From an uncultured Solirubrobacteraceae bacterium (lineage in GTDB: Bacteria; Actinomycetota; Thermoleophilia; Solirubrobacterales; Solirubrobacteraceae): a stretch of DNA of 64,000 nt. Under the pieces are notes generated by a model. That model saw only the letters and a list, made by a program, of their open reading frames with translations. It was not told the origin of the DNA and searched no databases. Each line of letters begins with the position of its first letter. The first letter of the stretch is position 1. The DNA is taken from contig CAVRTO010000011.1 of NCBI GenBank assembly GCA_963724145.1, forward strand, positions 6,970 to 70,969, read 5' to 3'. This document shows, piece by piece, positions 1,981 to 52,800 of the stretch. Made by a program: the position numbers and the translations under genes.

Positions 1981-4953
1981 TCAGACGGTGGCGTCGAGCC
2001 CGAGCCGGTGCGCGACGCCCGCGGCCTCGGTCCGCGAGCGCACGTCGAGCTTGGCGAGGATCCGCGACACGTGGACGCTCGCGGTCTTCTCGGCCATGTA
2101 GAGCTGGCGGCCGATCTCGCGGTTCGTCGCGCCGGCGGCGACCAGCGCGAGCACCTGGCGCTCGCGCGGCGTGAGGCCGAACGGATCCTCGTCCTCGGTG
2201 TCGTCGGTGCCCTCCGCGCCCGCGCTGCCGTCGCCGGCCAGCCGTAGCCGCGCACGCGCCGCGAGGCTCTGGACCTCGCCCTCGAGCCATGCGGCGCCGA
2301 GCCGCTCGGCGGTCTCGACGGCCTCCGACGCCGGCGCGGCCGCGGCCTCGCGGTCGCCCTCGGCGACGAGCGCCTCGGCCTGGCGCCAGCGCGCGCCCGC
2401 CGCGAGGTAGGGCCGGTCGAGCGCCGCCCAGCTCGCCGCCGCCGCGTCCCAGCGCGCCGCCTGGTCGGAGCCGACGGCGCGGCAGTGGTCGGCCTCGGCA
2501 TGGGCGAGGTAGGCGAGCTCGAGCGCCCCGCCGTCCTCCGCGCACGCGCGCACCCGCGCCACCAGGAGGTCGGCGTGCGTGACCGCGAGGTCGGCCGCGG
2601 CCACGTCGCCGACGTCGCGCGCCTGCTGCGCCGCGGTCGCCTCGGCCGCGAGCCCGGCGGTGCTGACCATCGCCATGCGCAGCGCGTCGTCGGAGCAGAA
2701 CTCGATCCGGTCGAGCGCCTCGTCGACCGCCGCGCGCGCGGCCGCGGTGTCGCCGGCGCGCGCCGCGAGCTCCGTCTGGAGCGCGCCGAGCACGCCCAGG
2801 TACTGCGGCTCGCGCGAGTCGACGGCGACCTCGGCGGCACGGGCGAGCTGCGCCCGCGCCTCCTCGCACTCGTCGCGCGCGAGCGCCAGCTCGGCCCGCC
2901 GCAGCGCGACCTCCAGCTCCCAGTTGCCGCCGGTCAGCCGCCGCCGCGCGACCTCGGCGAGCGCGGCGTCCGCCGCCTCCCAGTCGCCCGAGTCGAACGA
3001 CTGCTGCGCGATCAGCAGCGACAGCCAGCCCTGTCGCGTCGGCAGCGAGGCGAGCTCGGCGTGGCCGGCGCGGGCCACGTCGAGCGCCTCCGCCGTCCGG
3101 CCCGCCAGGTGCAGCGCGTCGCTCATGTTCACCGAGGTGGAGGCGATGTCCTGCAGGTGCCCGCGCTCGCGCGCCATCGCGAGCGCGCGGCCCAGCGTCT
3201 CGGCGCCCTCGTCGACCGCGCCGATCGCCATCTGCGAGACGCCGAGCGCGTTGAGCGCGCCGATCTCGTCGACGAAGTAGCCGTCCGGGTCGGTCAGCGC
3301 CGCGTGCTCCTCCAGCGCGCGGCGCGCCTCGCGCACGGCGCGGTGGTAGCGCGACTGCAGCGTCAGCGTCTTCGCGTGACGGGCGAGCAGCCCGGCGCGC
3401 TGCGGCGACGGCTCGTCCTCGGCCACCAGCGCGAGCCCCTGCTCGAGCTCCTCCATCGCCTCGTCCTGGCGCAGCAGCGTCCACAGCGACCGGTGCAGGA
3501 GCCCGTGGATCCAGGCCACGCGGCGCGGGGCCTGCTCGGGGTCGACGAGCTTCAGCGCGCGCCGCGCGAGCGTGACCGCGCGGCCCGGGTCGTCCGCGTA
3601 GACGTGGCAGCCGGCGGCGCGCTCGAGCAGGTCGACCTGGTCGCTGCCGGTCAGCCCGGCCGCGTCCGGCACGCGGTCCCACAGCTCGAGCGCGCGCTCG
3701 AACAGCGTCGCCCCCTCGCCGAAGGCCTGGACGTCCATCGCCGCCATGCCCGCGCGCACGGCGGCGGCCAGCGCCGCCGGCTGGTCGCCGGCGGCCAGAT
3801 AGTGGTGGGCGATCGCCGCGGCGCGCTGGGCGCCGGTCTCCGGGCCGTCGGATCCCGACAGCGCGGCCGCGAGCGCCCGGTGCAGCTCGGCGCGCTCGCC
3901 GGGCAGCAGGTCGTCGTGGACGGCCTCGGCCATCAGCGCGTGGCGCAGCGTGTAGCGCTCGCCGTGGAGCACGACGATGTGCGCCGCCATCGCCTCGCGC
4001 AGCCCGTCGCGGAGCGCCCGCCGGTCGAGCCCGCTGACCTCGGCGAGCAGCGCGTCGTCGAGCACGCCGCCGGCGGAGAGCACCCGGACGACCTCCTGCG
4101 CGTCGTCGCCGAGCCGGTCGATCCGCAGCGCGAGCGCGGCCGCGAGGCTCGGCGGGAGCGAGCCGCGCCCGTCGGTCCCGGCGGCCAGCAGCTCCTCGGT
4201 GAACAGCGGGTTGCCCTCGCTGCGCGCGTACAGCCGCTCGACGAGCGCCGCGTCGGGCGCGGCGCCGAGGATGTCGCCGAGCTGCTCGGCGAGCTCGTCG
4301 CGGCTGAGCCCCGCGAGGTCGATCCGCACTGCGCGGACCCGCTCCAGCTCCGCGAGCAGCGGCCGCAGCGGGTGCCGCCGGTGCAGCTCGTCCGGCCGGT
4401 AGGTCGCGACGATCAGCAGCGGCTCGGTCGAGAGCGTCGCGGCGAGGAAGCGGAGGAACGCGCGCGTCGACGCGTCGGCCCAGTGGAGGTCCTCGATCAC
4501 CAGCAGCACCGGGGTCTCGCGCGCGAGCCCGTCGAGCACCGCGAGCAGCGCCTCGAAGACGCGCGCCTGGTCGCCCGCGCCGCGCTCGTGCCCGCGGACC
4601 GTGGCGGCGAGCCCGGGCAGCAGCGTGGCCAGCTCGGCGCGGATGTCGTCCGGCAGCGCGTCGAGCACCGGGTCGGCATCGCGCACCAGCGGGCGCAGCG
4701 CGGTCACCAGCGGGGCGTAGGCCAGCTCGCCCTCGCCGAGCTCGACGCACTCGCCGCTCAGCACGCGCGTGCCGTCGGCGGTCGCGCGCGTCTCGAGCTC
4801 GGCGACGAGCCGGCTCTTGCCGACGCCCGACTCGCCGACCACGAAGGCGAGCGACGGCTGCCCGCCCGCCGCGTCGGCGAGCGCGGCCTGGAGCTGCGCG
4901 AGCTCCAGCGCGCGGCCCACGATCCGTTGCGAGGTGACGCCGGTGGCCATCAC
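1981..4953 (-). CDS. Large ATP-binding LuxR-family regulator (LAL/MalT-like: N-terminal AAA P-loop, TPR-like middle, C-terminal LuxR HTH)
   Basis: 990-aa ORF with Walker A VVGESGVGKSRL, Walker B LLVIEDLHWAD and the C-terminal LTPRERQVLALVAAGATNREIGRQLYMAEKTASVHVSRILAKL. Confidence 0.85.
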   Translation of the reverse strand: MMATGVTSQRIVGRALELAQLQAALADAAGGQPSLAFVVGESGVGKSRLVAELETRATADGTRVLSGECVELGEGELAYAPLVTALRPLVRDADPVLDALPDDIRAELATLLPGLAATVRGHERGAGDQARVFEALLAVLDGLARETPVLLVIEDLHWADASTRAFLRFLAATLSTEPLLIVATYRPDELHRRHPLRPLLAELERVRAVRIDLAGLSRDELAEQLGDILGAAPDAALVERLYARSEGNPLFTEELLAAGTDGRGSLPPSLAAALALRIDRLGDDAQEVVRVLSAGGVLDDALLAEVSGLDRRALRDGLREAMAAHIVVLHGERYTLRHALMAEAVHDDLLPGERAELHRALAAALSGSDGPETGAQRAAAIAHHYLAAGDQPAALAAAVRAGMAAMDVQAFGEGATLFERALELWDRVPDAAGLTGSDQVDLLERAAGCHVYADDPGRAVTLARRALKLVDPEQAPRRVAWIHGLLHRSLWTLLRQDEAMEELEQGLALVAEDEPSPQRAGLLARHAKTLTLQSRYHRAVREARRALEEHAALTDPDGYFVDEIGALNALGVSQMAIGAVDEGAETLGRALAMARERGHLQDIASTSVNMSDALHLAGRTAEALDVARAGHAELASLPTRQGWLSLLIAQQSFDSGDWEAADAALAEVARRRLTGGNWELEVALRRAELALARDECEEARAQLARAAEVAVDSREPQYLGVLGALQTELAARAGDTAAARAAVDEALDRIEFCSDDALRMAMVSTAGLAAEATAAQQARDVGDVAAADLAVTHADLLVARVRACAEDGGALELAYLAHAEADHCRAVGSDQAARWDAAAASWAALDRPYLAAGARWRQAEALVAEGDREAAAAPASEAVETAERLGAAWLEGEVQSLAARARLRLAGDGSAGAEGTDDTEDEDPFGLTPRERQVLALVAAGATNREIGRQLYMAEKTASVHVSRILAKLDVRSRTEAAGVAHRLGLDATV

Positions 4954-9635: not shown

Positions 9636-9708
9636 AGCCGGAGAGGGGACTCGAACCCCTGCGCTCTCGCTTACAAGGCGAGTGCTCTACCAACTGAGCT
9701 ACTCCGGC
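9636..9708 (-). tRNA. tRNA-Thr (anticodon UGU); CCA not encoded
   Basis: Reverse complement GCCGGAGTAGCTCAGTTGGTAGAGCACTCGCCTTGTAAGCGAGAGCGCAGGGGTTCGAGTCCCCTCTCCGGCT. It shows a 7-bp acceptor stem, D-loop AGCTCAGTTGGTAGAGC, anticodon loop CTTGTAA and T-arm GGTTCGAGTCC. Confidence 0.9.
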
Positions 9709-28034: not shown

Positions 28035-28197
28035 TGCGTTCGCCGTCGGACCTTGTACAGTGCCCGGCCAAGCCGAACCCCCGGATGGATCCCGGGGGAC
28101 GGGGGAACCAATTTGTTGGGGCTAACCGCGACCTGAGCGTCGCGGGGCGCAGGCTCTTTCAGCGCCAGCCCGTCAGCTAACCCCGCAGGCCGACGAA
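28035..28197 (+). promoter_or_regulatory. c-di-AMP riboswitch (ydaO/yuaA class) in the 5' leader of the NlpC/P60 gene
   Basis: Pseudo-twofold pattern read directly: CCGAACCC...GGGGGACGGGGGAACCAA...GGGGCUAACC and CCAGCCCGUCAGCUAACCCCGCAGGC, closed by GCCGUCGG/CCGACG. It ends 9 nt before the SD-like AAAGAGG and the ATG at 28206. Confidence 0.8.
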
Positions 28198-28205
28198 AGA
28201 GGCTT

Positions 28206-28835
28206 ATGTCGTTGTCACTGCGGGGCGTCGCCCCCATCTTCATCGTGCTGTTGTGCGTCATCGTCCCGAGCGGGGCGTATGCGCAGTCGCCCGCCACGGG
28301 CGGCGCCGCCTATGAAGAGGAGCCCCCGCCGCCGGCCATGCTGCAGCCCGGGCTGTGGAGCGGCCAGGAAGTGCCCGGCACCAAGGCCAAGCTGCTCCCG
28401 GACGGCACCGCCGCCGCTCCGGCCGACGCGCCCGACCAGGTCAAGCAGGCGATCTGGGCCGCGAACTCGCTCCAGGACCTGCCCTACCTCTACGGCGGCG
28501 GGCACAACCTGAAGTTCAACGTCGCCAAGGGCGCCGACTGCTCCGGCACCGTCTCGTTCGCCCTCCACGGCGGCGACCTGCTGGACACGCCGCTCGACTC
28601 CGGCTCGTTCATGAAGTGGGGCGAGCGGGGCAAGGGCGCCTGGATCACCGTCTACACGAACCCCGGCCACGCCTACGCCGTGATCGCCGGGCTCCGGCTC
28701 GACACGAGCGTCGCCGGCATGTCGCGCACGCGGAAGACGAAGGCCGCCGTCAAGGCGTTCGAGTCCGGCCCGCGCTGGCGCCCGATGCCGCGCTCCGGGC
28801 GCGGGTTCGTGAAGCGCCACCCCACGTCCTTCTAA
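28206..28835 (+). CDS. Secreted NlpC/P60 (C40)-like cell-wall hydrolase
   Basis: Signal peptide MSLSLRGVAPIFIVLLCVIVPSGAYAQ; LPYLYGGGHN...GADCSGTVSFAL (catalytic Cys context) and NPGHAYAVIAG (His). Confidence 0.75.
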   Translation: MSLSLRGVAPIFIVLLCVIVPSGAYAQSPATGGAAYEEEPPPPAMLQPGLWSGQEVPGTKAKLLPDGTAAAPADAPDQVKQAIWAANSLQDLPYLYGGGHNLKFNVAKGADCSGTVSFALHGGDLLDTPLDSGSFMKWGERGKGAWITVYTNPGHAYAVIAGLRLDTSVAGMSRTRKTKAAVKAFESGPRWRPMPRSGRGFVKRHPTSF

Positions 28836-43969: not shown

Positions 43970-46221
43970 ATGGGCAAGACCCTCGTCATCGCAGAGAAGC
44001 CGTCCGTCGGCCGCGACCTGTCGCGCGTGCTCCCGGGCACGTTCCAGAAGCACGAGGGGTACCTGGAGTCCGACGACCACATCATGACGTGGGCCGTCGG
44101 GCACCTCGTCCAGCTGGCCGAGCCCGACGAGTACGACCCCAAGTACAAGAAGTGGCGGATGGCGGACCTGCCGATCGTGCCGGACGAGTTCCGGCTGGTC
44201 GTGCGCGACGAGCGCTCGAAGAAGCAGATGAGCGTCATCACCAAGCTGCTCAGGCGCGCCGACGTCGACCGCGTGGTGAACGCCTGCGACGCGGGGCGCG
44301 AGGGCGAGCTGATCTTCGCCTGGACGTTCGAGAAGGCCGGCGCGGACAAGCCGGTCGACCGGCTGTGGCTGTCCTCGATGACCACGGCGGCGATCCGCTC
44401 GGCGCTCGGCGACCTGCACCCCGCGTCCGACTACGCGCGGCTGGAGGAGGCGGCGCGGTCGCGCTCCGAGGCCGACTGGATCGTGGGCATGAACGCGACG
44501 CGGGCGGCGACGATCCGGCTGCGCTCGTCGTTCGACGGCGCGGTCTCGCTGGGCCGGGTCCAGACCCCGACGCTGGCGCTGATCGCGCGCCGCGAGGAGG
44601 AGATCCGCGCGTTCAAGCCGGAGGCCTACTGGCTCGTCGACGCGCGCTTCGAGCCCACCGACGGCGAGCCCGGCCGCGCGTACGCCGGCCGCTTCCACGC
44701 CGGCGCGCAGCCGCGCCTGAAGACCGCGGCCGAGGCGGAGGCGATCGTCAGCCGCCGTCCGCGGCCAGGCGGGCACGATCACGAAGCTCGAGAAGACGAC
44801 GAAGAAGGAGCGCGCGCCGCTCCTCTACGACCTGACCACGCTCCAGCGCGAGGCGAACAACCGCTTCGGCTTCTCCGCCCGGCGCACGCTCGCCGCCGCC
44901 CAGCGGCTCTACGAGGAGCACAAGGCGCTCACGTACCCGCGGACGAACTCGCGCTTCCTGACCGGCGACATGGCCGGCGAGATCAAGCCGACCGCGGAGC
45001 TCGTCGGGCACAACAAGGAGTACGCGCGCGGCGCCGCCTACGTCACCGGGCTCGACACGCTCCCGCTCGGGCCGCGTGATCAACGACGCGAAGGTCACCG
45101 ACCACCACGCGATCATCCCGACGAAGGCCGAGCACCGCGATCGACAAGATGTCCGACGACGACCGGCGCATCTACGACATGGTCGCGCGCCGCTTCCTCG
45201 CCGATCTTCCACCCCGAGGCCGTGTTCGAGAACACGCGGCTCGAGACGACCGTGGCCGAGCACGTGTTCCGCACCCGCGGGCGCGTCCTGGTCGTGCCGG
45301 GCTGGCGCGGGGTGTACGGCGAGGGCTTCGAGGACCGCTCGCGCTCCGACGAGGACGAGGGCGACGACCAGACGCTGCCGAAGGTCGAGCAGGGCGAGGC
45401 GACGCGGACGCTCGAGGTCGGCTCCGAGGAGAAGGAGACCAAGCCGCCGCGGCGCTACTCCGACGCGTCGCTGCTGGCGGCGATGGAGACCGCGGGCAAG
45501 CTCGTGGACGACGACGAGCTGCGCGAGGCGATGAAGGACTCGGGGATCGGCACGCCGGCCACGCGGGCCGCCATCATCGAGCGGCTGATCGACGTCGCCT
45601 ACGTCGAGCGCGACGGGCGCGCGCTCGTCTGCACCGAGAAGGGCCTGAACGTGGTCCGGCTGCTCGACGGGCACCCGCTGACCTCGCCCGGGCTGACCGG
45701 CGAGTGGGAGCACCGGCTCGGGCGGATGGAGACCGGCGCGGAGACGCGCGAGAAGTTCATGCACGACATCGCGGACTTCGCGCGCGGGACCGTCGGCGAG
45801 CTCGACGCGAAGCTCAAGGAGGTCCGGATCCCGCGGGCCAACCTCGGGCCGTGCCCCGTCTGCGGCCAGGACATCGTCGAGAACCGCAAGGGCTTCTCGT
45901 GCTGGTCGCGCGAGGATCCGGGCTGCGGGTTCGTGATCTGGAAGAGCAAGGCCGGCAAGACGCTGCCGCATGGCGGTCGCGAAGGAGCTGATCGCCACGG
46001 GGCGGACCGCGCGCCCGGTCACCGGCTTCAAGGGCCGCTCGGGGAAGTCGTTCCGGGCGCGGCTCGCGCTGCAGCAGGCCGAGGACGGCAAGTGGCGCGT
46101 CGAGTTCGACGAGCCGTGGGCGCGCTCCGGCGCGCGGCCGCCGGAGTCGGACGACCCGGCGGCGGGCGGCGGCGGCGACGCCGAGACGCCCGCGACGGCG
46201 GCGGCGGTCGAAGCGGCCTAG
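43970..46221 (+). CDS. topB: DNA topoisomerase III-like type IA topoisomerase; five apparent single-base frame disruptions (about 44752, 45072, 45138, 45198, 45968)
   Basis: TOPRIM LVIAEKPSVGRDL...VNACDAGREGELIF; active-site ALTYPRTNSRFL; VINDAKVTDHHAIIPT; zinc ribbon CPVCGQDIVENRKGFSCW; C-terminal repeat GRTARPVTGFKGRSGKSFRARLAL. The pieces lie in successive frames (track ORFs 43970, 44970, 45076, 45149, 45970). Confidence 0.8.
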
Positions 46222-46502
46222 GCGGCGCGCTCGCGCGGGTGCGCCGGGCGGACCGGCGTGGCGGCGTCGCGCGGCGGGCGGTTGCGCAGCGCGGCCCACA
46301 GCTCGCGCAGCGCGCGCATCAGCAACGTGCCGGCGCGGACCTGGGGCTCGCGCAGGACGGCGGGGATCGCCGGCGTGGCCGGGCCCTGGGACGCCGTCCA
46401 CGTGACGTAGAGCTCGGCGCTGTCGACCAGCTCCGCGATCAGGCCGGCCAGGATCAGGTCGGCTTCGTCGTGCTGCGCGGGCAGGTACAGCTGGGCGGCC
46501 AT
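46218..46502 (-). CDS. Hypothetical small protein (94 aa)
   Basis: ATG preceded by GGAGGAG at proper spacing. MAAQLYLPAQHDEADLILAGLIAELVDSAELYVTWTASQG...; no family recognised. Confidence 0.45.
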   Translation of the reverse strand: MAAQLYLPAQHDEADLILAGLIAELVDSAELYVTWTASQGPATPAIPAVLREPQVRAGTLLMRALRELWAALRNRPPRDAATPVRPAHPRERAA

Positions 46503-46605
46503 CGTGGCTCCTCCGTGGACAGGGCTCCAGCACGGATAACGGCACATCCCGTGCGTCGCTTGAGTGCCGATTGTCACGAATCTGCGCAAAGAGCGGAAGT
46601 TTTCT

Positions 46606-46911
46606 GCGGACGGCCGTGCCGGGACGAACTTCGGGCATTGAGGGGAGGGTCGGACGGGGCGGTCGTCCGCGGGCGCAGAACGTCGACATCGCGCGCGCTC
46701 TCCGCCTCCGCTCGACGTTCGGCGGCTATGCGGCGCACAACGTCGATCGCGCGGCGGATCGGCGCGTGATCTCGACGTTATCCACCGTATGCGTGCAAAA
46801 CGTCGAGCGCGCTCGCGATCGGCCCGCGATATCGACGTTGTGCGGCCTCGCGGCACTCCGTCCTTCCCCTCGATGCCAGAAGTTCGTCCCGGCGCCACAA
46901 AGACCGTCCGC
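46606..46911. repeat. Nested palindromic element: long imperfect inverted repeat enclosing three 41-nt units (AACGTCGA-N25-TCGACGTT) at an exact 60-bp period
   Basis: Units at 46679-46719, 46739-46779 and 46799-46839. Outer arms 46619-46657 versus 46858-46892 (about 32 complementary positions) plus GCGGACGG 46606-46613 versus CCGTCCGC 46904-46911. Ends 24 nt before the addB start. Confidence 0.7.
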
Positions 46912-46934
46912 CACGCGCGCCACCCTGGAAGCCC

Positions 46935-49867
46935 GTGCCGCTGACGCTCATCACCGGGCCCGCCAACGCCGCCAAGGTCGGCGCCGTCCTCGAGCGCCTG
47001 CGCGCCGCGCGCCCGCGCGACCCGCTGCTGGTGGTCCCCACCGCGGCCGACGTCTCCCACTACCAGCGCGAGCTCGCGAGCTCGAACATCGTCTTCGGCG
47101 CGGAGGTGCTCACCTTCGCGCGCCTGATCCGCGAGATCGCGCGCCGCACGAAGCTGCGCGCGCGGCCGCTCGGGTGGACCGCGCGCGACCGCGTCGTCCG
47201 CGCGGCGGTCGCCGGCGTCCCGCTGCGGGAGCTGGCCGCGTCCGCCGGCACGCCCGGGTTCGCCGACGCGGCGGGGCGGCTGTTCGCCGAGCTCGAGCGC
47301 GGCCGCGTCGAGCCGGCGCGGTTCACCGCGGCGCTGCGCACCTGGGCGGCCGGCGGCTCGCGCTCGGCGTACGCCGGCGAGCTCGGCGCGCTCTACTCGG
47401 CCTACCGCCGCACGCTCGAGGAGCTCGGCCGCCCGTCGCTCGAGGGCTACGCCTGGGCGGCGCTCGACGCGCTGCGCGCCGACCCGGCGGTCTGGGCGCG
47501 GCGCCCGGTGTTCCTGTACGGATTCGACGACCTCACGCCGACCGAGCGCGACGCCGTCGAGACGCTGAGCGGGCACGCCGAGGCCGACGTCTGCCTCGCG
47601 CTGCCCTACGAGCCGGGCCGGGTCGCGTTCGCCGGCCGCGCCGCGACCGTCGAGGAGCTGCGGCCGGTCGCCGCCGAGGTCGTCCACCTGCCGGAGCGCT
47701 CCGAGCACTACGCCCCGAGCGCCCGCCGCGCGCTGCACCACCTCGAGCGCTCGCTGTTCGAGCCGGCGCCCGACCGGCGCCCGCCGAACGGCGCCGTGCG
47801 GCTGCTCGAGGCCGGCGGCGAGCGCGCGGAGGCCGAGCTCGTCGGCGCCGAGGTGCTCGAGCTGATGCGGCAGGGCATCGCCGCGCCGGACATCGCGGTG
47901 CTGCTGCGCGGCGACGCGGGCGTGACCGCGCTGTTCGCCCAGGTCCTGGCCGGCTACGGGATCCCGGTGAGCCACGACCGGCGCGTCCCGCTCGGCCGCA
48001 CGCGGCTCGGCGCGGGCGTCCTCGCGGGGGCGAGGGCGGCGCTCGAGCGCGGCACCGCCGCCGAGCTGCTGACCTGGCTCCGCACGCCCGGCAGGCTGCC
48101 CGACCCCGAGCCCGCCGACCGGCTGGAGGCGCACGTCCGCCGCAACGGGATCACGCAGCGCGCGGGTCGCCCGCGAGGTGTGGGAGACGCGGCTCGGGCA
48201 GCCGGAGCTGACCGCGCTCGACCGGCTCGCCGCGGCCGCCGGCGAGGGCGCCGAGGCGCTGCTCGCCGCGATCGAGGCGGAGGCGCAGGCGATCTGGACG
48301 GCGCCGCACCGGCGCCGCGCCGAGGTGCTCGCCCCGGAGGACCTGGCCGACGCGCGGGTGGCGCGCGACCTGCGCTCCGCCTGCTCCGAGCTGCGCGGGC
48401 TGGCCGCCGCCGACCCCGACCTGCTCGGGCCGCCGGGCGACGTGATCGACGGGCTCGCGCCGGTGCGGGTGCGCGAGCCGTCCGCGCTGTCGGGCAGCGA
48501 GCCCGGCGTGCTGCTCGCCGATCCGCTCGCGATCCGCGCGCGGCGGTTCCGCGCGGTGTTCGTCTGCGGGCTGCAGGACGGCGAGGTGCCGCGCCGCCCC
48601 GAGCCGGAGCCGTTCCTGTCGGACGACGATCGCCGCGCGCTCGCCGTCGCCACCGGCCTGCGGCTGCCGCCGCACGAGGACGTGCTCGACCGCGAGCGGT
48701 CGCTGTTCTACGCCGCGGTGTCGCGCCCCGAGGACGTGCTCTTCCTCTCCTGGCGCTCGTCGGACGAGGAGGGCAACCCGGCCGCGCCGTCCGTCTTCGT
48801 CGACGACGTGCGGGCGCTGTTCGACGACTCGCTCTGGGAGCAGCGCGGGACGCGGCTGCTCGCCGACGTGACCTGGACGCCGCGCGACGCGCCGACGCCG
48901 CACGAGCTGCGGCGCGCCTACGCCGCGGCGCGCAGCGAGCCGGATCCCGACCCGCTCGGCGCGCCCGAGACCGAGGCGCTGCTGGCGATCCTCGCGGCGC
49001 GCGACACCGAGCCGGCGCGCGGGCTGGAGGCGTTCGCGGCCTGCGGCGTCCGCTGGCTGATCGAGCAGTTCCTCCACCCGGAGCGGATCGAGCCCGATCC
49101 CGAGCCGATGCAGCGCGGCTCGCTCGCGCACGCCGTGCTCGAGCGGACGCTCGCGCTGCTGCGCGAGCGCACCGGCTCGGCCGCGATCGTCCCCGAGCGG
49201 CTGGACGACGCGCTCGCGGCGCTGCGGGACGCGCTCGACGAGCGCATCGGCGGCCGCGGCCGCGCGCGGCGCCGTGCGCTGCTGCGCGGGCTCGAGGCCG
49301 ACCTGGAGCGCTACCTGCGCACGGAGGCCGAGCACGGCGCCGGCTACGAGCCGGAGGCGCTGGAGTGGTCGTTCGGCCGCCCCGAGGACCCGCACGGGCC
49401 GCTCCCGCTCGGCGCGGGCGCCGGCGCGGTGACCGGCCGGGTCGACCGGATCGACCGCGGCCCGGGCGGCGCCGCGATCGTGCGCGACTACAAGGGCCGC
49501 ACGGCGGTCGGCGGCGCGAAGTGGGAGGACGACCTGCAGCTGCAGGTGCCGCTCTACCTGCTCGCCGTGCGCGAGCTGCTCGGGCGCGAGCCGGTCGCCG
49601 GGCTCTACCAGCCGCTCGCCGGCCGCAAGCTCGACGCCCGCGGCCTCGTCCGCGACGACGTCCCCGGCGACTACGTCCGCACCGACAAGGTCGACGCCGC
49701 CGGCTTCGACGACGCGCTCGAGGCCGTCCGCGCGCTCGCGGCGCGGACCGCCGCCGAGCTGCACGCCGGGCGGATCCGGCCGTGTCCCGGAGCGCTGCTC
49801 GAACCGCGGCTGCCGGTATCCCGCGATCTGCCGCGCGGGCGAGCCGCGCAACGAGCCGCCGGCATGA
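46935..49867 (+). CDS. addB: AddB-type helicase-nuclease subunit (degenerate P-loop N-terminus, C-terminal PD-(D/E)XK nuclease with Cys cluster); frame disruptions near 48160 and 49795
   Basis: GTG start MPLTLITGPANAAKVGAVLERL...; second frame ...LFLSWRSSDEEGNPAAPSVFVDDV...RGSLAHAVLE...VTGRVDRIDRG...AAIVRDYKGR; third frame RCSNRGCRYPAICR then a TGA overlapping the addA ATG (ATGA). Confidence 0.75.
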
Positions 49868-52800
49868 GGGGCACGCCCGAGCAGCGCGCGGCGATCGCCG
49901 ATCGCGAGGGGTCGTCGCTGCTGGCGGCGGGGGCCGGCTCCGGCAAGACCGCGGTGATGGTCGAGCGGTTCGCGGAGGCGGTGCTCGAGGACGGCGTCGC
50001 CGTCGGCGCGATCCTGACGCTGACCTTCACCGAGAAGGCGGCCGCCGAGCTGCGCGAGCGGATCCGGCGCCGCTTCGCCGAGCTGGGCGAGATGGAGCAC
50101 GTGCGCGCGGTCGACGCCGCCTGGATCGGGACGATCCACGGCTTCTGCGCCCGGGTCCTGCGCAGCCGCCCGCTGGCCGCGGGGCTCGACCCGCGCTTCG
50201 GCGTGCTCGACGAGGCCGCCCAGCGGCGGCTCGCCGCGGAGGCGTTCGAGGCGGCGCTGGAGACGTGGATCGCGCGCCAGGGCAACCCGGCCGTCGACCT
50301 CGCCGCGGCCTACGGCCGCGAGCTGGAGCCGATGGTCACCGGCGCGCACGCCACGCTCCGCAGCCGCGGGGCGGCCCATCCGCGGCTGCCCGTGCCGCCG
50401 CCCCAGCCGCCGCCCGACCCCGCGCCGCTGGCCACGGCCGCCGCGGTGGCCGCCGCCGCGCTCGCGACCGCCGGGGCCGGCGTCCGCGTCGGCCAGGCGC
50501 GCGACGGCGCTGGAGGCCGCCGAGCGGATCGCGACCGCCGGCGGTGAGCCGCCGCTGCCCGGTGCGCTCGACGCGGCGAAGCTCGGCAGCGGCGCGAAGG
50601 CGCTCGAGGATCCCGCCTGCGGCGCCTACCGCGAGGTCTGGGCCGCGTACCGCGAGGCGTGCGCGTCGTACCACGCGCAGCCCGCGCTCGCCCTGCTCGA
50701 CGCGCTGCTCGACGCGTTCGGCACGGCGTACGCGGCGGCCAAGGCGGCGCGCGCCGCGGTCGACTTCGACGATCTCGAGCTGCGCGTCCGCGACCTGCTC
50801 GCGGATCCCGCCCAGCGCACCCGCTGGGCCGAGCGCTTCGCGCTGATCATGGTCGACGAGTTCCAGGACACGAACCGGCTCCAGCTCGACGTGCTCGAGG
50901 CGCTGGAGCGCGACAACCTGTTCGCGGTCGGCGACGAGGCGCAGTCGATCTACGGCTTCCGCCACGCGGACGTGCGCATCTTCCGGGCGCGGCGCGCCGC
51001 GCTCGACGCGTCACGCGTGCGCAGCCTCACCGTCAACTTCAGGTCGAGACAAGAGATCCTGGCGGTGGTCAACGCCGCGATCGGGCCGCTGCTCGGCAGC
51101 GGCTTCACGCCGCTCGTCCCGGGCCGCGCGCCGGAGGTGCTGCGGCTGTTCGAGCCCGACCCGCCCGGCCCGCCGGCGGTCGAGCTGCTGGCCGTCGAGA
51201 CCGCCGGCTGGGACCAGCGCGCGGCCGACCTCGGGCTCGGCACGCTCGCCGCGCAGCCATGGCGCCGCGCGGAGGCCCGCGCGGTCGCAGCCCGGCTGCG
51301 CGAGGAGGTCGACGCCGGCCGCCCGCAGCGCGACGTCGTCGTGCTCGTCCGCGCGACGAGCTCGCTGCGGCTCTACGAGCAGGCGCTGGAGGAGGAGGGC
51401 CTGAGCACCTACGTGGTCGGCGGCCGCGGCTACTGGGCGCAGGAGCAGGTCCGCGACGGCATCGCCTACCTGTCGCTGCTCGCCAACCCGCACGAGGAGG
51501 GCGCGCTCTACGCGGTGCTGTCATCGCCGTTCTGCGGCGTCGGCACCGATGCGCTCGCGCTGCTGGCCGACGCGGCCCGCCGCGAGGGCGAGCGCGCGTG
51601 GCCCGCGCTGCGGCGCGCGGTCGCCGAGCGCCCGCCGTGGTTCGAGGCGCTGCCCGGGGACGCGGCGGCCCGGCTCGCCGGCTTCGCCCGCTTCGCGGCG
51701 GGCGAGCGGCTGCGCGGCGAGCGGCTGCCGGTCGAGGTGCTGCTCGAGCGCGCGATCGCCCACACCGGCTACGACCTCGCGATCCTCGCCCGCGCCGGCG
51801 GCGACCGCCGGCTCGCGAACCTGCGCAAGCTGATGCGGCTCGCGCGCGAGTACGAGCGCGCGGAGGGCCGCGACCTGCGCGGCTTCCTCGGCTACGCCGT
51901 CGGCCAGGATCTCGCCGAGGCGCGCGAGGGGGAGGCGGCGCTCGAGTCCGAAGGCCTCGACGCCGTGCGGCTGATGACGATCCACCGCGCCAAGGGGCTC
52001 GAGTTCCCGGTCGTCTGCGTGGCCGACCTCGGGCGCACCGGCGCGCTGGGCCGCGACCGGCTGCTGATCGGCGAGGACGGCGACGCCGGGCTGCGGCTGC
52101 TCACGCTCGCCGGCGGGGAGCCGGTGCCGGCGCTCGGGTGGGAGCGGATCGCCGCCGCGCTGGCCGAGGCCGAGGCGGCCGAGGAGCGGCGCCTGCTCTA
52201 CGTCGCCGCCACCCGCGCGGAGGAGCGGCTGATCCTCTCGGGCGGCATCGACACCGCGAAGTGGCCCGTCCCGCGCGGCGGCGCGCCGCCGATCGACTGG
52301 CTCGCGCCCGCCCTGCTCGGCGGCAGCGGGCCGATCCCGGCCGACGCGACGGTCCCGTGCGGCGACGGGGCGGTCGCCGTCCGGCTGCTCGCGGCCGAGG
52401 ACGGCATCCCCGCGCCCGCCCCGCGCGAGCGTCGCAGCTCGCCGGGCACCGCGCTGCCCGCCGAGCCGAAGGTGATCCCGGTGCCCGCGCGCCCCGCGCC
52501 GGCCCAGCGCCGGCTCTCGTACTCGTCGCTCACCGACTACGCCCGCTGCGGCTACCGCTTCTACCTCACGCGCGAGCTCGGGCTGCCGCGCGTCACCCCG
52601 CCGGGCGAGATCGTGCCCGCCGCCGACGAGCCTGCGGACGCCGAGCCCGACGTCCGAGGCGGTCACCGGCGAGCCGCCGCCGCTCGACAAGCTCGTCCGC
52701 GGCTCGCTCGTCCACGCGCTGCTCGAGGACCTCGACTTCGCCCGCCCGGAGCCGCCCGACGACGCCACGGTGCTCGCGCTCGGCGAGCGCGCCGGGCTCG

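Follow-up and report, generated by a model that had tools for sequence, protein, structure and literature searches.

A palindromic repeat upstream of addB in a Solirubrobacteraceae genome is probably one copy of a dispersed family derived from winged-helix DUF559 nuclease genes

The window analyzed here, a 64-kb stretch of contig CAVRTO010000011.1 (positions 6,970 to 70,969) from an uncultured Solirubrobacteraceae bacterium, has a G+C content of 74% and carries the addBA genes. A 432-bp intergenic region separates the GTG start codon of addB at 46935 from the ATG, at 46502, of a small divergent open reading frame (ORF) on the minus strand. Within this region lies a palindromic element composed of two terminal inverted repeats, two spacers, and an array of three tandem units joined by two linkers (Table 1).

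The 8-nt box AACGTCGA occurs on the plus strand at 46679, 46739, and 46799 and as its reverse complement at 46712, 46772, and 46832, forming three AACGTCGA-N25-TCGACGTT units upstream of addB at an exact 60-bp period, as an initial annotation made from the sequence alone had described. The array is non-random: the window holds 11 matches to AACGTCGA against 2.07 expected, six of the 11 fall in the array, and none of 100 shuffles reached 11. A repeat search of the window returned three 45-nt copies spaced 60 and 60 nt apart, and Tandem Repeats Finder reported a period of 60 with 2.3 copies. The context described as common to the units, TATGCG in both linkers and GCA-N-AACGTCGA, is also present. 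The long enclosing inverted repeat proves equally real, with arms of 37 nt that are 89% complementary, and provides the terminal inverted repeats that define a miniature inverted-repeat transposable element (MITE); the only other occurrence of a 29-mer taken from one arm is the opposite arm. An outermost pair, GCGGACGG/CCGTCCGC, had been assigned to the same structure; it exists as sequence, but CCGTCCGC(C) is the ancestral addB-proximal flank, which element-free orthologues retain, and not part of the element. The region 46606-46911 as a whole is an imperfect palindrome of ~300 bp centered on unit 2, and its RNA fold scores z = -9.8 or -10.4 against shuffles, depending on the strand. A promoter and terminator scan found no sigma-70-like promoter and one weak terminator-like site, which lies outside the element.

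Table 1. Coordinates of the element, its parts, and the flanking features in the window
Feature	Position	Strand	Basis
Small divergent ORF, 94 aa, MAAQLYLPAQHDEADL...	46218..46502	-	Translation, frame plot of G+C at third codon positions (GC3); no Pfam family
Ancestral intergenic DNA, outside the element	46503..46608		Aligns to element-free orthologues
Left terminal inverted repeat GCCGGGACGAACTTCGGGCATTGAGGGGAGGGTCGGA, contains family core GCATTGAGGGGA	46618..46654	+	Inverted-repeat search; family consensus
Spacer, left terminal inverted repeat to array	46655..46678		Belongs to the block that differs between the window and L088
Unit 1, AACGTCGA-N25-TCGACGTT	46679..46719		Box matches, repeat search
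Linker 1, 19 nt, TATGCG central; family linkers are hairpins with a ~5-nt loop	46720..46738		Linker covariation
Unit 2, symmetry center of the entire palindrome	46739..46779		Box matches, repeat search, fold
Linker 2, 19 nt, contains TATGCG	46780..46798		Sequence, linker covariation
Unit 3	46799..46839		Box matches, repeat search
Spacer, array to right terminal inverted repeat	46840..46856		Sequence
Right terminal inverted repeat, reverse complement GCCGGGACGAACTTCTGGCATCGAGGGGAAGGACGGA	46857..46893	-	Inverted-repeat search; family comparison
Ancestral addB-proximal segment CCGTCCGCC-A-CGCGCGCCACCCT-N8-GTG	46904..46934	+	In all orthologues with or without the element; 98% identical to L088
addB, ADDB_N and PD-(D/E)XK nuclease domains; addA then follows	46935..49800	+	Pfam

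A scan of one genome per species (185,579 species) with the pattern AACGTCGA-N20-30-TCGACGTT-N14-24-AACGTCGA returned 87 stretches, all in metagenome-assembled genomes (MAGs) of Solirubrobacteraceae except for a handful of single, chance-like matches in other phyla. Loci number at least 13 in the MAG CAWIGP01, nine in DATHJG01, and seven each in CAWHOS01 and CAWHAP01. With one mismatch allowed per box, the scan loci and the window's own array together give 75 arrays, 54 with two units, 13 with three, and eight with four, at a period of 60-61. In 39 family members both flanks of the array carry conserved terminal inverted repeats, and their consensus, drawn from 54 ends, reads GAACGGCGG-GCATTGAGGGGA-GGGG, often preceded by (CCGGCG)AACGTCAAC; the shared consensus is also written GAACGGCGGGCATTGAGGGGAG. 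The arms in the window are an ordinary member of the first terminal-inverted-repeat subfamily, and a second subfamily has GCTGGGTGGGGAAG cores and 42-nt units.

All copies are intergenic and adjoin unrelated housekeeping genes, among them ABC transporters, acyl-CoA dehydrogenases, clpP-clpX, and LysR/LacI regulators. Gene 3' ends adjoin the repeat on 74 sides and 5' ends on 51, often with 0-40 nt between element and stop codon, which suggests that many copies act as, or are tolerated as, terminator-like hairpins. The divergent context seen at addB is the rarest (5 of 51 resolved cases). The family is thus small, non-coding, and dispersed in many copies at unrelated loci, as expected of a MITE. 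A MITE-like element had been one of the possibilities offered for this DNA, with many dispersed copies at unrelated loci named as the outcome that would make it a generic repeat or MITE; the 87 stretches are such copies, and the conserved terminal inverted repeats, the 2-4 units, the intergenic position, and the many copies per genome all support the MITE-like alternative. Neither a plasmid collection (blastn, distant mode) nor viral contigs (box pattern) gave a match, and the literature searched contained no description of this repeat family or of the DUF559 link set out below. The family appears to be undescribed, and it is abundant in a major, poorly studied soil lineage.

Some copies show more complex arrangements. 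L080 carries two complete elements in tandem (429-880), each after an identical 27-nt flank, and L083 (~540-640) and L018 (~4351-4410) have duplicated terminal inverted repeats, which suggests local duplication or nested insertion. In many copies, for example at L008, L014, L030, L055, and L085, GTAG/CTAG stands a few bases beyond the terminal inverted repeat (GTAGCGCCGGCGAACGTCAAC); its origin may lie in the TAG stop codons of neighboring genes or in the end of the element or its target.

Comparison of 133 units of 41 nt reveals that the two boxes are near-invariant. The fourth box, left free by the search pattern, matches exactly in 162 of 192 cases, against 11 exact matches in 5000 background trials. 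The five or six positions on the outer side of the boxes covary in a stem pattern; positions -3/45, for instance, form 52 GC and 48 CG pairs and are paired in 75% of units versus 47% expected. The 19-nt linker forms a hairpin of its own, with a loop of ~5 nt (for example TATAG, CTCTA, or TATGC); its positions 4/16 are paired in 82% of cases, again versus 47% expected. The interiors, of 25-26 nt, are only ~35-40% alike between copies, pair neither within nor between units, and when shuffled shift the folding energy by z = -0.4. Hairpins closed by the 25-nt interiors, the form first proposed for the RNA, are thereby ruled out: no complementarity exists across the family, and the linkers form the hairpins instead. 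Variant boxes retain their pairing, with AACGTCGT...ACGACGTT in L048 and AACGTCAC...GTGACGTT in L006, L009, and L065. Near-invariant boxes beside covarying flanks define the unit as a sequence-specific pair of boxes at fixed spacing, set in stems that may change as long as they stay paired; the covariation also implies that a folded single strand, either RNA or DNA during replication or mobilization, matters.

Only one gene family recurs beside the arrays. It encodes a ~260-aa protein with an N-terminal AbiEi_4 winged helix-turn-helix (wHTH) and a C-terminal DUF559 / MTES_1575 nuclease domain resembling the very short patch repair endonuclease Vsr. In seven of the 87 pattern-selected loci, at least five of them independent and with protein identities as low as 34%, this gene begins directly at a two-unit array, its TTG or GTG start codon lying within the outer stem flank. 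A protein-similarity search, used to remove the ascertainment inherent in a DNA pattern, yielded at least 4608 homologues at E <= 1e-10. The translated array, [KQE]RR-x9-10-[LIC]DV with a period of 20 aa (60 nt), appears in 63 of the 70 homologues that have at least 21 extra N-terminal residues, and two units 20 aa apart appear in 30 of the 31 whose extension reaches at least 41 residues. Of the 70, the seven that lack the array are the most distant homologues; the one examined, L113, has a different hairpin, ACGTTGACCCC-aataat-CGGGGTCAACGT. The DNA of two loci selected by protein, L111 and L112, presents an upstream inverted repeat (GAACTGCGCATTGAGAGAG), a ~95-nt spacer, a two-unit AACGTCGA array, and then the gene start. 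At the level of sequence, these comparisons establish that a very large gene family, encoding AbiEi-type winged-helix plus DUF559 (Vsr-like PD-(D/E)XK) proteins, has the two-unit array as its conserved 5' element.

The terminal inverted repeats lead to the same genes. Every locus examined has their core again within the gene, inversely oriented at codons 77-82; translated, it gives LIPSMP(P/Q)F, a motif found family-wide where the wHTH domain ends. The homology between terminal inverted repeat and gene covers codons ~78-88, and an inverted second copy of this segment stands ~95 nt before the gene-linked array. The in-gene segment follows the repeat subfamily of its genome: in L019, from a genome with subfamily-b repeats, it reads GCAGGGTGGGGG, much like the subfamily-b terminal inverted repeat GCTGGGTGGGGA. 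Among genes at the loci covered, the terminal-inverted-repeat sequence was found only in the wHTH-DUF559 gene. Since the coding motif is conserved far beyond the repeat-bearing genomes, descent probably runs from gene to repeat. Gene-linked arrays, moreover, share genome-specific linker and flank subtypes with the orphan repeats of the same genome. Inverted repeats directly upstream of an AbiEi-type wHTH gene are thus a property of the gene-linked copies and not of the copy at addB. No inverted repeat bracketing a whole DUF559 gene was found.

Several observations concern the gene-linked arrays themselves. The linker loop is often TATG, in the window (46727-46732 and 46788-46793) and in linkers family-wide, and in gene-linked arrays the ATG of this TATG is in frame with the DUF559 protein (for example MGAKRR... 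and MAAQRR...), so that translation may read the second unit into the protein as a basic N-terminal tail of variable sequence. The box codons have A/T third positions, against ~95% GC3 for the genome, which indicates that the sequence is constrained at the nucleic-acid level. CAWIGP01 carries a ~1-kb unit of DUF559 gene, array, and upstream inverted repeat in at least three copies of 92-96% identity (L017 1478-2481, L043 6485-7488, and L039 5481-6391) that differ at their C-terminal ends; with this copy number the DUF559 gene is multi-copy and possibly mobile.

A metagenome scan with the AddB N-terminus provided 23 orthologous loci, 20 of them with upstream sequence, to which the genome locus L015 was added. 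The element precedes addB only in L088 (98% aa identity) and L015 (~93% nt identity). In the multiple alignment, the entire element falls into a single clean gap in at least 10 orthologues, whose aa identity is 79-85%. The intergenic regions of element-free orthologues are mostly about 120-210 bp long, and in them a left block (GGATAACGGC ... CTTGAGCTTTAG ... GAAATGTGTCCAAATTGCG-like) nearly abuts a right block (CCGTCCGCC-N-CGCGCGCGACCCT-N8-ATG). The gap thus marks ~46609-46903 as inserted DNA, placed between the ancestral upstream motifs and the addB-proximal segment. These alignments show the addB copy to be a lineage-specific insertion confined to the closest relatives rather than a conserved regulatory device of addB. 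The initial annotation had proposed to look for the 8-mers and outer stem upstream of addB orthologues; among the loci with upstream sequence, this element is present in L088 and L015 only.

The window and L088 share 96-98% identity in the flanks and 92.6% at the third codon positions of addB. Both terminal inverted repeats and unit 3 retain 85-95% identity, and within 46655-46798 there are segments of only 37-71% identity, falling to 32% in interior 1. Recombination or gene conversion involving another copy is the best explanation of this mosaic. The same intergenic site also hosts like-built elements with other boxes, located between the same ancestral blocks in L105 (~2050-2360), L106 (~2790-3000), L108 (~1-200), and L101 (~2700-2860). 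Their boxes are GTCAACGC/GCGTTGAC, GAACGTCC..., GAACGTCCA/TGGACGTTC, and GTCAACGTC/GACGTTGAC, and their presence marks the site as either a preferred target or an old, overwritten insertion. A different small palindromic repeat, GGTTTCGCCTGCCAGGCGAG, stands just upstream of addB in L096, L104, and L107, single or in tandem (three in L104).

Taken together, these findings lead us to conclude, with good confidence, that 46618-46893 is one copy of a dispersed, non-coding, non-autonomous palindromic repeat that resembles MITEs and bacterial interspersed mosaic elements (BIMEs) and probably derives from the 5' module of wHTH-DUF559 genes. A family member consists of two terminal inverted repeats of ~35-40 nt (core GCATTGAGGGGA, often after AACGTCAAC), short spacers, and 2-4 tandem units of 60-61 bp. 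Orphan repeats would be amplified deletion derivatives of the gene's 5' module, with the order inverted repeat - array - [wHTH coding deleted] - inverted repeat. In the boxes we see putative binding sites of the wHTH-nuclease; by analogy with AbiEi, these would serve as an autoregulatory operator at the protein's own gene, and they may also offer a handle for mobilizing or homogenizing copies. The dispersal points to mobility of the family, and both spread and homogenization would proceed through the wHTH-nuclease protein or through recombination between copies. In any transcript crossing the element, the hairpins are predicted to form strong structure. At addB the element is most likely a tolerated passenger; it puts ~295 bp between the operator-like motifs upstream and the start of addB.

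Several observations weigh against this interpretation. The limits of the insertion are approximate, as no occupied and empty pair is close enough to define exact ends, and no second copy of the array or terminal inverted repeat, nor any DUF559 homologue, occurs elsewhere in the 64-kb window. Clustering of all high-GC3 ORFs at the 87 loci revealed no transposase or REP-associated tyrosine transposase (RAYT, where REP denotes repetitive extragenic palindromic) recurring beside the copies. Terminal-inverted-repeat pairs at the spacing of an insertion sequence (IS) are absent from 113 loci, whole genomes not having been searched, and within the same compass no parent transposase element with matching terminal inverted repeats came to light. 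No direct repeat flanks the terminal inverted repeats in the window or in the 39 copies, in line with the earlier remark that a target-site duplication cannot be seen. Covariation of the stems speaks for a role of a nucleic-acid hairpin besides, or instead of, a protein bound to double-stranded DNA. The differing elements at one spot upstream of addB could mean that an old element was repeatedly overwritten by gene conversion and lost elsewhere, in place of a recent gain, and the intact boxes kept in three lineages leave room for a local effect on addB expression.

A bolder extension of the preferred reading seems to us doubtful, though worth stating. In it, wHTH-DUF559 genes would carry a "specificity module", comprising the promoter or operator array and the entire DNA-binding domain and bracketed by one inverted repeat upstream and another within the gene at the domain boundary, that the encoded nuclease may itself move, invert, or copy; amplified deletion derivatives (inverted repeat - array - inverted repeat) would then be nuclease-dependent non-autonomous elements. 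The scattered arrays would form binding sites across the genome that link genes, addBA among them, to the protein, with gene conversion maintaining their homogeneity. No inverted form of the inverted-repeat-bracketed module was found among the gene loci examined. If correct, this would be a new class of non-autonomous element, dependent on a nuclease and not on a transposase.

A purely structural repeat of the REP/BIME kind, with no dedicated protein partner and serving as a terminator or as a stabilizer of mRNA 3' ends, would account for the strong bias towards gene 3' ends, the covarying stem flanks, the linker hairpins with 5-nt loops, and the lack of a transposase, with the DUF559 link reduced to an insertion preference. 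Structure alone leaves the near-invariant 8-mers beside freely covarying stem positions unexplained, however, and of 70 DUF559 gene starts sampled independently, 63 have the array, in a register that never shifts relative to the coding sequence (CDS); homology of the terminal inverted repeat to a conserved coding motif speaks of descent rather than of insertion preference, and we judge this explanation unlikely. An exapted operator, which arrived as a mobile repeat and now places addBA under control of the box-binding wHTH-DUF559 protein on a six-box nucleoprotein platform that represses or activates the operon, would suit the family-wide constancy of the boxes, the recurrence of related, different-box elements at the same intergenic site in other lineages, and the same arrays at AbiEi-type wHTH genes, whose products autoregulate through inverted repeats (PMC7319586). 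Against it, most copies lie at gene 3' ends, where an operator has no role, the DUF559 gene is missing from the window, and most orthologues lack any element. We hold exaptation to be rather improbable, and the dispersal and the orthologue gaps refute the multi-site operator first suggested insofar as it was specific to addB. The broader suggestion of an array of protein-binding sites fares better: as candidate sites of the wHTH-DUF559 protein it is plausible, given the arrays at the 5' ends of those genes, and nothing about it is specific to addB.

Long residence upstream of addB, with loss in most lineages and repeated overwriting by gene conversion in place of recent insertion, draws on the like-built elements between the same ancestral motifs in L105, L106, L108, and L101 and on the clear mosaic replacement between the window and L088. 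It would demand many independent clean losses, because at least 10 orthologues hold no trace of terminal inverted repeats or boxes, and the carriers of AACGTCGA-type boxes are exactly the three closest relatives; little credence attaches to it. A cis-regulatory RNA for addBA, in which a structured 5' leader or small RNA would govern transcription or translation of addB through its closing stem and three hairpins, was the other leading suggestion of the initial annotation. The very stable fold on either strand (z about -10) and the intact boxes retained across three related lineages favor such an RNA, as does proximity: the right arm ends at 46893, only 41 nt short of the addB start (23 nt if the boundary first given, 46911, is used), and the element would be co-transcribed with addB unless addB is leaderless from the proximal segment. 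The proposal is nevertheless refuted as a dedicated addBA leader by the same structure at 87 places in unrelated loci, mostly after gene 3' ends, by its absence from most orthologous upstream regions (the same gapped orthologues), and by the replacement of the inner half between near-identical relatives, which a tuned leader would not tolerate. In agreement with the earlier statement that this is no known riboswitch, no Rfam family matched the region at the gathering threshold, and the best permissive match, Ms1, is noise (9.8 bits versus a gathering score of 162, E = 3.6). We consider the RNA very improbable. A miniature CRISPR-like array, with 35-nt palindromic repeats TCGACGTT-N19-AACGTCGA and 25-nt spacers, is suggested by the regular period, the variable interiors of fixed length, and the palindromic "repeat". 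The repeat middles differ by ~50% within one array, though, each array counts only 2-4 units between terminal inverted repeats, many copies are dispersed, the interiors are conserved between copies of one subfamily, and no flank of the 87 loci contains cas genes. For want of near-identical repeats and cas genes, a CRISPR array was rejected, and we see next to no chance that it is correct.

The 94-aa divergent ORF is the conserved left neighbor of addB among orthologue loci (gene start CAGCTGGGCCAT) and lies outside the element. The adjoining ancestral DNA shares 96% identity with L088 and 92% with L015, matches the conserved orthologue motifs GGATAACGGC, CTTGAG..., and a GAAATGTGTCCAAATTGCG-like block, and probably contains the promoter/operator region of the divergent gene pair. 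All orthologues share the blocks GGATAACGGC, CTTGAGCTTTAG, and GAAATGTGTCCAAATTGCG in the divergent intergenic region (46540-46608 in the window; L089-L107) and the block CCGTCCGCC-N-CGCGCGCGACCCT-N8-ATG just before addB. The GAAAT...TTGCG block upstream of addB could be an operator, and the addB-proximal segment is possibly the core promoter of a near-leaderless addB. A LexA/Cheo-box reading of the motif GAAATGTGTCCAAATTGCG was compared by eye and gave a poor match, and no claim is made for it.

Elsewhere in the window, the topoisomerase gene at 43970-46221 contains several frame shifts, and addB (~48100-48178) and addA (~50400-50470) contain one each. GC3 stays near 1.0 throughout all three genes, and the frame changes look like indel errors of a long-read assembly, not genuine pseudogenes; the same is seen in many related MAGs (MFD series). 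Only two Rfam matches in the whole window exceed threshold, a c-di-AMP (ydaO/yuaA) riboswitch at 28061-28206 on the plus strand (70 bits) and a tRNA at 9636-9708 on the minus strand.

For addB, the preferred reading turns a striking structure into a passenger repeat and not a new control element of the DNA-damage response, and in genome annotation the element should be masked rather than modeled as an RNA gene. Its terminal repeats and box arrays are traceable to the 5' end of a huge family of DUF559 proteins, labeled "very short patch repair endonuclease-like" and of unknown role, which thereby gain a candidate DNA target, AACGTCGA-N25-TCGACGTT. The in-gene copy of the terminal repeat may also explain the prominence of DUF559 in surveys of inverted repeats within CDS.

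Among known repeats, the BOX elements of pneumococci have a modular boxA-boxBn-boxC layout. Both families consist of intergenic non-coding modules with complementary ends, a variable number of internal tandem modules (here two, three, or four), a long, stable predicted hairpin, many copies, and no transposase. The likeness is one of architecture only; no sequence relation is known, and the host belongs to another phylum; the units here are not near-identical, keeping only two 8-nt boxes, their spacing, and the stem pairing, and a cognate gene family can be named.

REP/BIME repeats of Proteobacteria flank the gene of a RAYT (TnpA-REP), an IS200/IS605-type Y1 transposase. They share with the present family the arrays of imperfect palindromes in alternating orientation, fixed linkers, intergenic position, 3'-end bias, a conserved hairpin base with covariation elsewhere, and repeats flanking the gene of the presumed acting protein. 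In contrast, the partner here is a wHTH-DUF559 protein and not a Y1 transposase, no RAYT lies in any flank, and the repeats bear long terminal inverted repeats, absent from REPs and apparently derived here from the partner-gene CDS; the family would thus add a nuclease-linked counterpart to the REP-RAYT pairing. MITEs, exemplified by the Correia elements (CREE) of Neisseria, agree in size (~200-400 bp), non-coding nature, terminal inverted repeats, many dispersed copies near genes, and the ability to alter expression of neighbors. The family differs from them in that no target-site duplication or parent IS with a transposase was found here, and the internal hairpin array is unusual for a MITE.

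Proteins of the AbiEi type autoregulate by binding inverted repeats, present as one or two sets, in the promoters of their genes, and the gene-linked two-unit arrays share this own-promoter layout with the AbiEi / Rv2827c operators (PMC7319586). They depart from it in a C-terminal DUF559 nuclease domain in place of an antitoxicity domain, in the lack of a DUF1814 toxin gene, in half-site spacings of 25 and 19 bp, and in the copying of operator-like arrays around the genome. DUF559 is also enriched (odds ratio 14.3, from a table) among predicted targets of programmed inversion, in which one inverted repeat lies inside the CDS and its partner outside (PMC9881135). The geometry matches the upstream and in-gene copies described here; PMC9881135 gives no detail on DUF559, and programmed inversion differs in that the loci examined show no inverted form and no adjacent recombinase. 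In architecture, the repeat family stands closest to BOX, BIME, and MITE repeats.

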